From NCBI RefSeq assembly GCF_003790525.1, contig NZ_CP033635.1: a DNA stretch of 64,000 bases, one strand, 5' to 3'. Made by a program: the position numbers and the translations under genes. The notes beneath the pieces are model-generated. The model did no database searches, was not told where the DNA came from, and was given only the letters and a program-made list of their open reading frames with translations. This document shows positions 8,191 through 8,703 of the stretch, in pieces. This DNA comes from Escherichia coli. GTDB lineage: Bacteria; Pseudomonadota; Gammaproteobacteria; Enterobacterales; Enterobacteriaceae. How positions within the stretch are numbered: the stretch's first letter is position 1; each line of letters starts with the position of its first letter.

Positions 8191-8703
8191 TTAGCTGAGG
8201 CGTTGAGGGCCAGCACGGATGCCTTGCGCCTGGTTTATCCAGACGGGCGTGCTGAATTTTGCTTGCGGGGTAAAATGCGCATAATCAATGCGATAACCCT
8301 TTCCAGACGGCGTGCCTTCCTGGGTCAACAGCGCGCTGAGCGTATCCAGTAATGCAAGATGTTGCGCCTGAAGAGGCAAAGATTCTTCAGCAACGGGCAG
8401 CGTTTGCGGTGCCATTGCGAAGGAAAGATGGCGGATTACCGTGCGAATGGCATGTTGATGCCAGTAATCAACGGAATAGTTCGAATTCGGGCGGCGCGTG
8501 TTCGCTTCCAGCAAGGCCAATTGACCAAAGTTAACTTTGGCTGAAGGCTCGTGGTTGCGGGTTGTCGCTTTTGCGGGCGCGTTTGGTTCGGCGGCATTGC
8601 TGAGTGCAGGCAAACCTAAACTCGCCGCGACCATCCCTAATAAGAGATGCGGCCAGAAGTAGCGTTTACCAAACTGTCGCCAGCGCGTCAGTATTCCACT
8701 CAC
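8191..8703 (-). CDS. secM: secretion monitor SecM (translation-arrest leader of secA)
   Basis: ORF 8191..8856 trimmed to the GTG at 8701-8703, giving the 170-aa SecM ([10 protein letters not shown]...); C-terminal arrest motif [17 protein letters not shown] is present. Confidence 0.9.

Follow-up and report, generated by a model that had tools for sequence, protein, structure and literature searches.

Asparagine at position 157 of the SecM arrest motif: an ordinary, lineage-specific polymorphism in Escherichia coli

The stretch of Escherichia coli DNA analysed here (64,000 nucleotides of contig NZ_CP033635.1, assembly GCF_003790525.1; hereafter the window) contains a normal E. coli secM-secA regulatory unit in which SecM is a lineage-specific allele, with Gly at residue 134 and Asn at residue 157. 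The replacement of Ser by Asn at position 157 (S157N) lies within the arrest motif and is an ordinary polymorphism. We consider it likely that this polymorphism is near-neutral, with arrest and regulation retained, and that it arose once and became fixed in a clonal lineage that includes SMS-3-5.

The two genes of the unit and the landmarks of secM are the following:

8191..8703, minus strand: secM coding sequence, 170 codons plus the TAA stop (open reading frame and translation)
8701-8703 and 8191-8193, minus strand: GTG start and TAA stop codons of secM (open reading frame)
8593..8703, minus strand: Sec signal peptide region, residues 1-37 (identity to K-12 SecM over residues 1-133)
5424..8129, minus strand: secA, the regulated downstream gene, 901 codons (open reading frame; NCBIfam SecA equivalog, 1316 bits)

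As this layout indicates, secM and secA are co-oriented, with secM directly upstream and a spacer of 61 nt between them, and NZ_CP029747.1, a genome 100% identical to the window, is annotated alike. In that genome the gene is annotated as secM, its product being WP_000014324.1, and its SecA accession, WP_000905789.1, is also that of K-12. The window protein scored 192.7 bits against the Pfam SecM family PF06558 (cutoff 25), covering profile positions 1-146 of 147, and 228 bits against the NCBIfam equivalog NF002799 (cutoff 100); its score against the Pfam SecM_small model was below the cutoff, which places it with the long enterobacterial type. In K-12 SecM, the signal peptide is cleaved after Ala37. 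Identity to the K-12 protein, whose signal sequence is experimentally established (PMC10987492), indicates that the N-terminal Sec signal sequence is present here. The family models, the motif, the signal-peptide region, the position before secA and the predicted mRNA stem described below all identify the window protein as a long enterobacterial SecM.

Several Rfam models also matched elsewhere in the window. An STnc40 match overlaps the 3' end of secA (5379-5448, minus strand, 81.7 bits) and a 'PssrA' match lies at the ftsA-ftsZ junction (11095-11185, minus strand, 102.4 bits), both above the gathering score. Three naRNA4 (REP-type) elements (4899-4975, minus strand; 51219-51284 and 58231-58310, plus strand), SgrS (37594-37820, minus strand), the leucine operon leader (32686-32835, plus strand) and a TPP riboswitch (40586-40685, plus strand) are ordinary features of this region of the E. 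coli chromosome.

K-12 SecM carries a Sec signal sequence at its N terminus and, further on, the arrest sequence F150xxxxWIxxxxGIRAGP166; in the ribosome that it stalls, the P site is occupied by Gly165-tRNA and the A site by Pro166-tRNA (PMC10987492, PMC10951299). [quoted passage not shown] By identity with K-12, the same cycle would operate from the window: the SecM nascent chain would stall the ribosome that is making it, with the P-site and A-site tRNAs just named; this ribosome, standing on the 5' arm of the mRNA stem by which the ribosome-binding site of secA is masked at other times, would allow secA to be translated; and the Sec machinery, by pulling on the signal peptide, would release the arrest. 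The codons concerned, together with those that differ between alleles, are:

8206..8256, minus strand: arrest motif, codons 150-166 (translation; motif definition and stall position from PMC10951299)
8209-8211, minus strand: Gly165, P-site codon of the stalled ribosome (stall position from PMC10951299)
8206-8208, minus strand: Pro166, A-site codon of the stalled ribosome (stall position from PMC10951299)
8233..8235, minus strand: codon 157, AAC (Asn), which is AGC (Ser) in K-12 and 98% of E. coli (protein and DNA alignments, 30-mer counts)
8302..8304, minus strand: codon 134, GGA (Gly) as opposed to GAA (Glu), the second substitution specific to this haplotype (alignments)
8194-8196, minus strand: codon 170, Ser (alignment)

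An earlier note on this DNA, made from the sequence alone, had claimed that Asn takes the place of Ser in the motif at 8206-8256, relative to the K-12 motif. The alignments bear this out, since K-12 MG1655 has Ser157 (AGC) and the window Asn157 (AAC), the changed base being 8234 (T on the plus strand); the K-12 motif had been given correctly and the reference does not carry Asn. All nine specified residues of the motif (F150, W155, I156 and G161-P166) are intact in the translation, and the x position 157 is the sole difference from K-12 within it. Outside the motif the earlier note had missed two further differences, E134G and T170S. Thus K-12 SecM (SECM_ECOLI, WP_000014321.1) resembles the window protein in length (170 residues) and overall sequence (98% identity, residues 1-133 being identical), has the same nine residues required for arrest, is likewise encoded upstream of secA with a predicted SD-hiding stem, and differs from it, in the direction from K-12 to the window, by E134G, S157N and T170S. 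The commonest non-K-12 allele of E. coli, WP_000014320.1 (SECM_ECO45; found for example in O157:H7), is identical to the window protein, Ser170 included, except at two residues, E134 and S157, which are G134 and N157 in the window; over the whole gene the two are separated by 2-7 synonymous differences. Ser170 is common to the window, O157:H7, Citrobacter and Salmonella, and Thr170 is a minority, K-12-side variant, a distribution which indicates that the 'canonical' K-12 reference is itself derived at residue 170. In the 2.0 Å structure of the stalled ribosome, residues 132-165 were modelled inside the exit tunnel (PMC10951299). Both E134G and S157N fall within this tunnel-resident segment, and by analogy with the structure residue 134 would lie near the tunnel exit during arrest.

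Among the E. coli SecM proteins clustered in this work, one cluster member found on 3 contigs (P0244) has W155R, a change at a residue classed as essential for arrest; if real, this natural variant is more surprising than S157N.

Position 157 is an x position of the motif, unimportant for arrest in alanine scanning (PMC10987492, PMC10951299). In the 2.0 Å cryo-EM structure, the side chain of Ser157 hydrogen-bonds the ribose of A2062 and makes further, water-mediated contacts, and the A2062U mutation lowers stalling (PMC10951299). Residue 157 also belongs to a helix of seven residues, Thr152-Gln158, whose unfolding or stability was proposed to set the release force (PMC10951299), and a molecular-dynamics study described the straightening of Ser157 at a defined step of the force-induced release. 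Finally, S157P was reported to prevent both compaction and stalling (PMC6340945), meaning that position 157 is not indifferent to every residue. For S157N itself, a full-text literature search found no arrest data; its hits at this position were the structural and molecular-dynamics mentions of Ser157 and the S157P mutant.

We then compared position 157 among other SecM proteins. Ser is present in 103 of the 104 motif-carrying cluster representatives at 90% identity. At 50% identity, the 63 representatives have Ala (31), Ser (22), Val (4), Gly (2), Arg (2), Gln (1) or Thr (1), so that Ala or Ser accounts for 53 of these distant sequences and Asn for none. Larger polar residues, Arg in two cases and Gln in one, thus occur naturally at this position. 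Many cluster representatives (P0005-P0007, P0034-P0036, P0121 and others) have a frameshift or end prematurely, either ahead of the arrest motif or inside it; these probably reflect faulty sequencing or assembly of metagenome and Logan contigs and not real pseudogenes.

A scan of 100,044 species-representative genomes with the pattern W-x-N-x3-G-I-R-A-G-P gave eight matches, four of which are genuine secM genes directly before secA. These four, with Asn at the equivalent of position 157, belong to Citrobacter sp. NCU1, Tenebrionibacter intestinalis (WLNQTQGIRAGP), Enterobacteriaceae bacterium LSJC7 (WLNMTQGIRAGP) and an Enterobacteriaceae metagenome-assembled genome (WLNKTQGIRAGP). The SecM proteins of Citrobacter sp. 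NCU1 and of the Tenebrionibacter / LSJC7 group share with the window protein the Asn at the 157 equivalent, the GIRAGP end and the secA gene immediately downstream, but the surroundings of their motifs are divergent (FNVSVWINQAQ and xSVxHWLN[QKM]TQ, respectively). Since the surrounding residues diverge, Asn arose independently in these other species. More distant arrest peptides, namely the short SecM of Pasteurellaceae (Mannheimia HAPIRGSP) and the RAPP-type ApdA and ApdP, also stall at an R-A/G-x-P end in the peptidyl-transferase centre (PMC12526060, PMC10951299), but their upstream 'regulator' segments are different and have no equivalent of the WIS/WIN helix. The earlier note had called position 157 variable, which holds for mutational tolerance, as seen in the alanine scan, but not for natural variation, given the near-invariance of Ser in close relatives and its contact with A2062. 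In the comparison with other Enterobacteriaceae that it had proposed, Ser is nearly invariant close to E. coli and Asn is found in four other secM-secA loci of Enterobacterales.

These observations bear directly on whether S157N, alone or with E134G, could keep the arrest and yet alter its strength, its lifetime or the force needed for release, a reading that we regard as unlikely. Such tuning would proceed through an altered contact with A2062, or through an altered stability of the tunnel helix 152-158, and would shift the set-point of SecA expression in the lineage. What speaks for it is the hydrogen bonding of Ser157 to the A2062 ribose, directly and through water, the proposal that helix stability determines the release force, the simulated straightening of Ser157 at a defined release step, and the near-invariance of position 157 in close relatives; in addition, both residues that distinguish the window protein from the commonest E. 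coli allele lie in segment 132-165, compared with only 2-7 synonymous differences gene-wide. Against this, by the motif definition arrest is unimpaired with Ala at 157, and about half of the distant SecM families have Ala in place of Ser, which means that the hydroxyl contact can be dispensed with; natural SecM proteins include some with Asn, Gln or Arg here, and two nonsynonymous changes in one gene of one lineage are too few to argue selection. A mild quantitative effect of S157N on arrest strength is possible, if unsupported. The more specific proposal that Asn157 and Gly134 together retune the SecM force sensor in the SMS-3-5-type lineage seems to us quite improbable. If it were true, the window would hold a natural allele with a different SecA set-point, and the independent Asn residues of Citrobacter and Tenebrionibacter would mark a second permitted state of the A2062 contact.

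We also looked at the mRNA between the arrest motif and secA. Minimum-free-energy folds of 191 nt (window 8290-8100, minus strand) were calculated with ViennaRNA for both alleles, and they predicted a stem with these arms:

8194..8207, minus strand: predicted 5' arm of the SD-hiding stem (CTCAACGCCTC.GC), which starts at the A-site codon (ViennaRNA; stem-loop model of PMC10987492)
8138..8151, minus strand: predicted 3' arm (GCGGGGCG.TTGAG), which holds the GAG of the secA SD sequence 8-11 nt upstream of the secA ATG (ViennaRNA)

The stretch of the 3' arm is identical to that of K-12, and the predicted stem, 8207-8194 with 8151-8138, is the same in the Asn and Ser alleles. Base 8234 remains unpaired in the 5-nt loop of a predicted hairpin with either allele, and the folds differ in energy by 0.2 kcal/mol. 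An effect of the G-to-A change at the RNA level was therefore rejected, on the grounds of the unpaired loop base, the small energy difference and the unchanged predicted stem. In the secM-secA spacer of another E. coli genome, FDAARGOS_1259, the G-run of the predicted 3' arm is shorter by 1 nt, through a deletion, than in both the window and K-12.

The same region is informative about a loss of arrest. S157N might weaken or abolish the arrest, with the lineage compensating elsewhere, for example by a weaker SD-hiding stem or by higher transcription of secA; the structural contact of Ser157, its natural conservation and the reported loss of stalling with Pro at this position are all that points in this direction, and we hold it to be very improbable indeed. 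From codon 139 to the secA ATG, TUM10828, which carries the Ser allele, differs from the window by a single base, that of S157N. This argues that there is no compensation in cis, and a compensating change in the secM-secA spacer was rejected on this basis. Moreover, the nine essential residues are all intact, the predicted stem does not change, SecA has the K-12 sequence, and Asn is present in the SecM of four other species.

The frequency of the allele was determined with 30-nt queries centred on the variant base, so that each 28-nt megablast seed contained this base. Of 5,426 complete E. coli genomes, 72 matched the 30-mer specific for Asn and 5,333 the one specific for Ser; about 19 complete genomes with secM matched neither, and a secM match was absent from 2 of the 5,426. 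Three secM matches in this genome collection were on records labelled as plasmids. The sources of the Asn genomes are spread over several continents and comprise humans, cattle, poultry, pigs, dogs, cats, sheep, a pangolin, a mink, wild birds, rivers and wastewater. At least 60 of them, SMS-3-5 included, are 100% identical to the window over 771 nt covering secM and its flanks (all of the 60 best matches listed). As the earlier note had supposed, S157N is thus a natural variant; 72 complete genomes have it, on one haplotype. That the difference is an error of sequencing or assembly in the window deserves practically no credence and was ruled out, as the same base is present in 72 independent complete genomes, at least 60 of which are identical over these 771 nt.

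The identity extends well beyond secM. Positions 1-25000 of the window are 100% identical to SMS-3-5 (NC_010498.1, 98042-123041, reverse strand) and to at least 7 other complete genomes, and only 105 of the 5,424 matching genomes reach at least 99% identity over these 25 kb, from which we conclude that the window comes from a fairly distinct lineage. The identity of the Asn genomes over 771 nt and 25 kb places the allele on one haplotype of one lineage. When codon 157 of the window haplotype was reverted to AGC, no complete genome matched it at 100%, the best matches being the Asn genomes themselves at 99.9%; the immediate Ser-bearing ancestor over the 771 nt is therefore not among the complete genomes. 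The nearest Ser-bearing haplotypes show a few further changes, mostly synonymous. The exact window protein occurs on at least 1,000 public contigs under the name 'secA translation cis-regulator SecM', and the S157N allele is already known, having been deposited as WP_000014324.1 and correctly annotated in dozens of complete genomes.

It is the near-neutral polymorphism with retained arrest that accounts best for these results. The N157 allele probably retains the arrest, given that none of the nine essential residues is altered, that a widespread lineage has become fixed for the allele, and that Asn is found in four other secM-secA loci. SecM arrest was reported by Murakami et al. 2004 to be essential for basal secA expression, and an allele fixed in a thriving lineage should hence still arrest. 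Some caution about near-neutrality is called for by the strong constraint on position 157 in nature, the Ser157-A2062 contact, the location in helix 152-158 and the loss of stalling with S157P. The co-occurrence of E134G, which puts two changes in the tunnel-resident segment, calls for similar caution.

The S157N change as such matters little, because SecM is a textbook nascent-chain sensor and the allele is already deposited. It does illustrate that x positions defined by alanine scanning are not evolutionarily free, since residue 157, which contacts A2062, is nearly always Ser or Ala. The natural Asn alleles are fitness-compatible test cases for how the A2062 contact and the tunnel helix set the strength of the arrest, and N157 is a natural variant usable by those who employ SecM as a force sensor.
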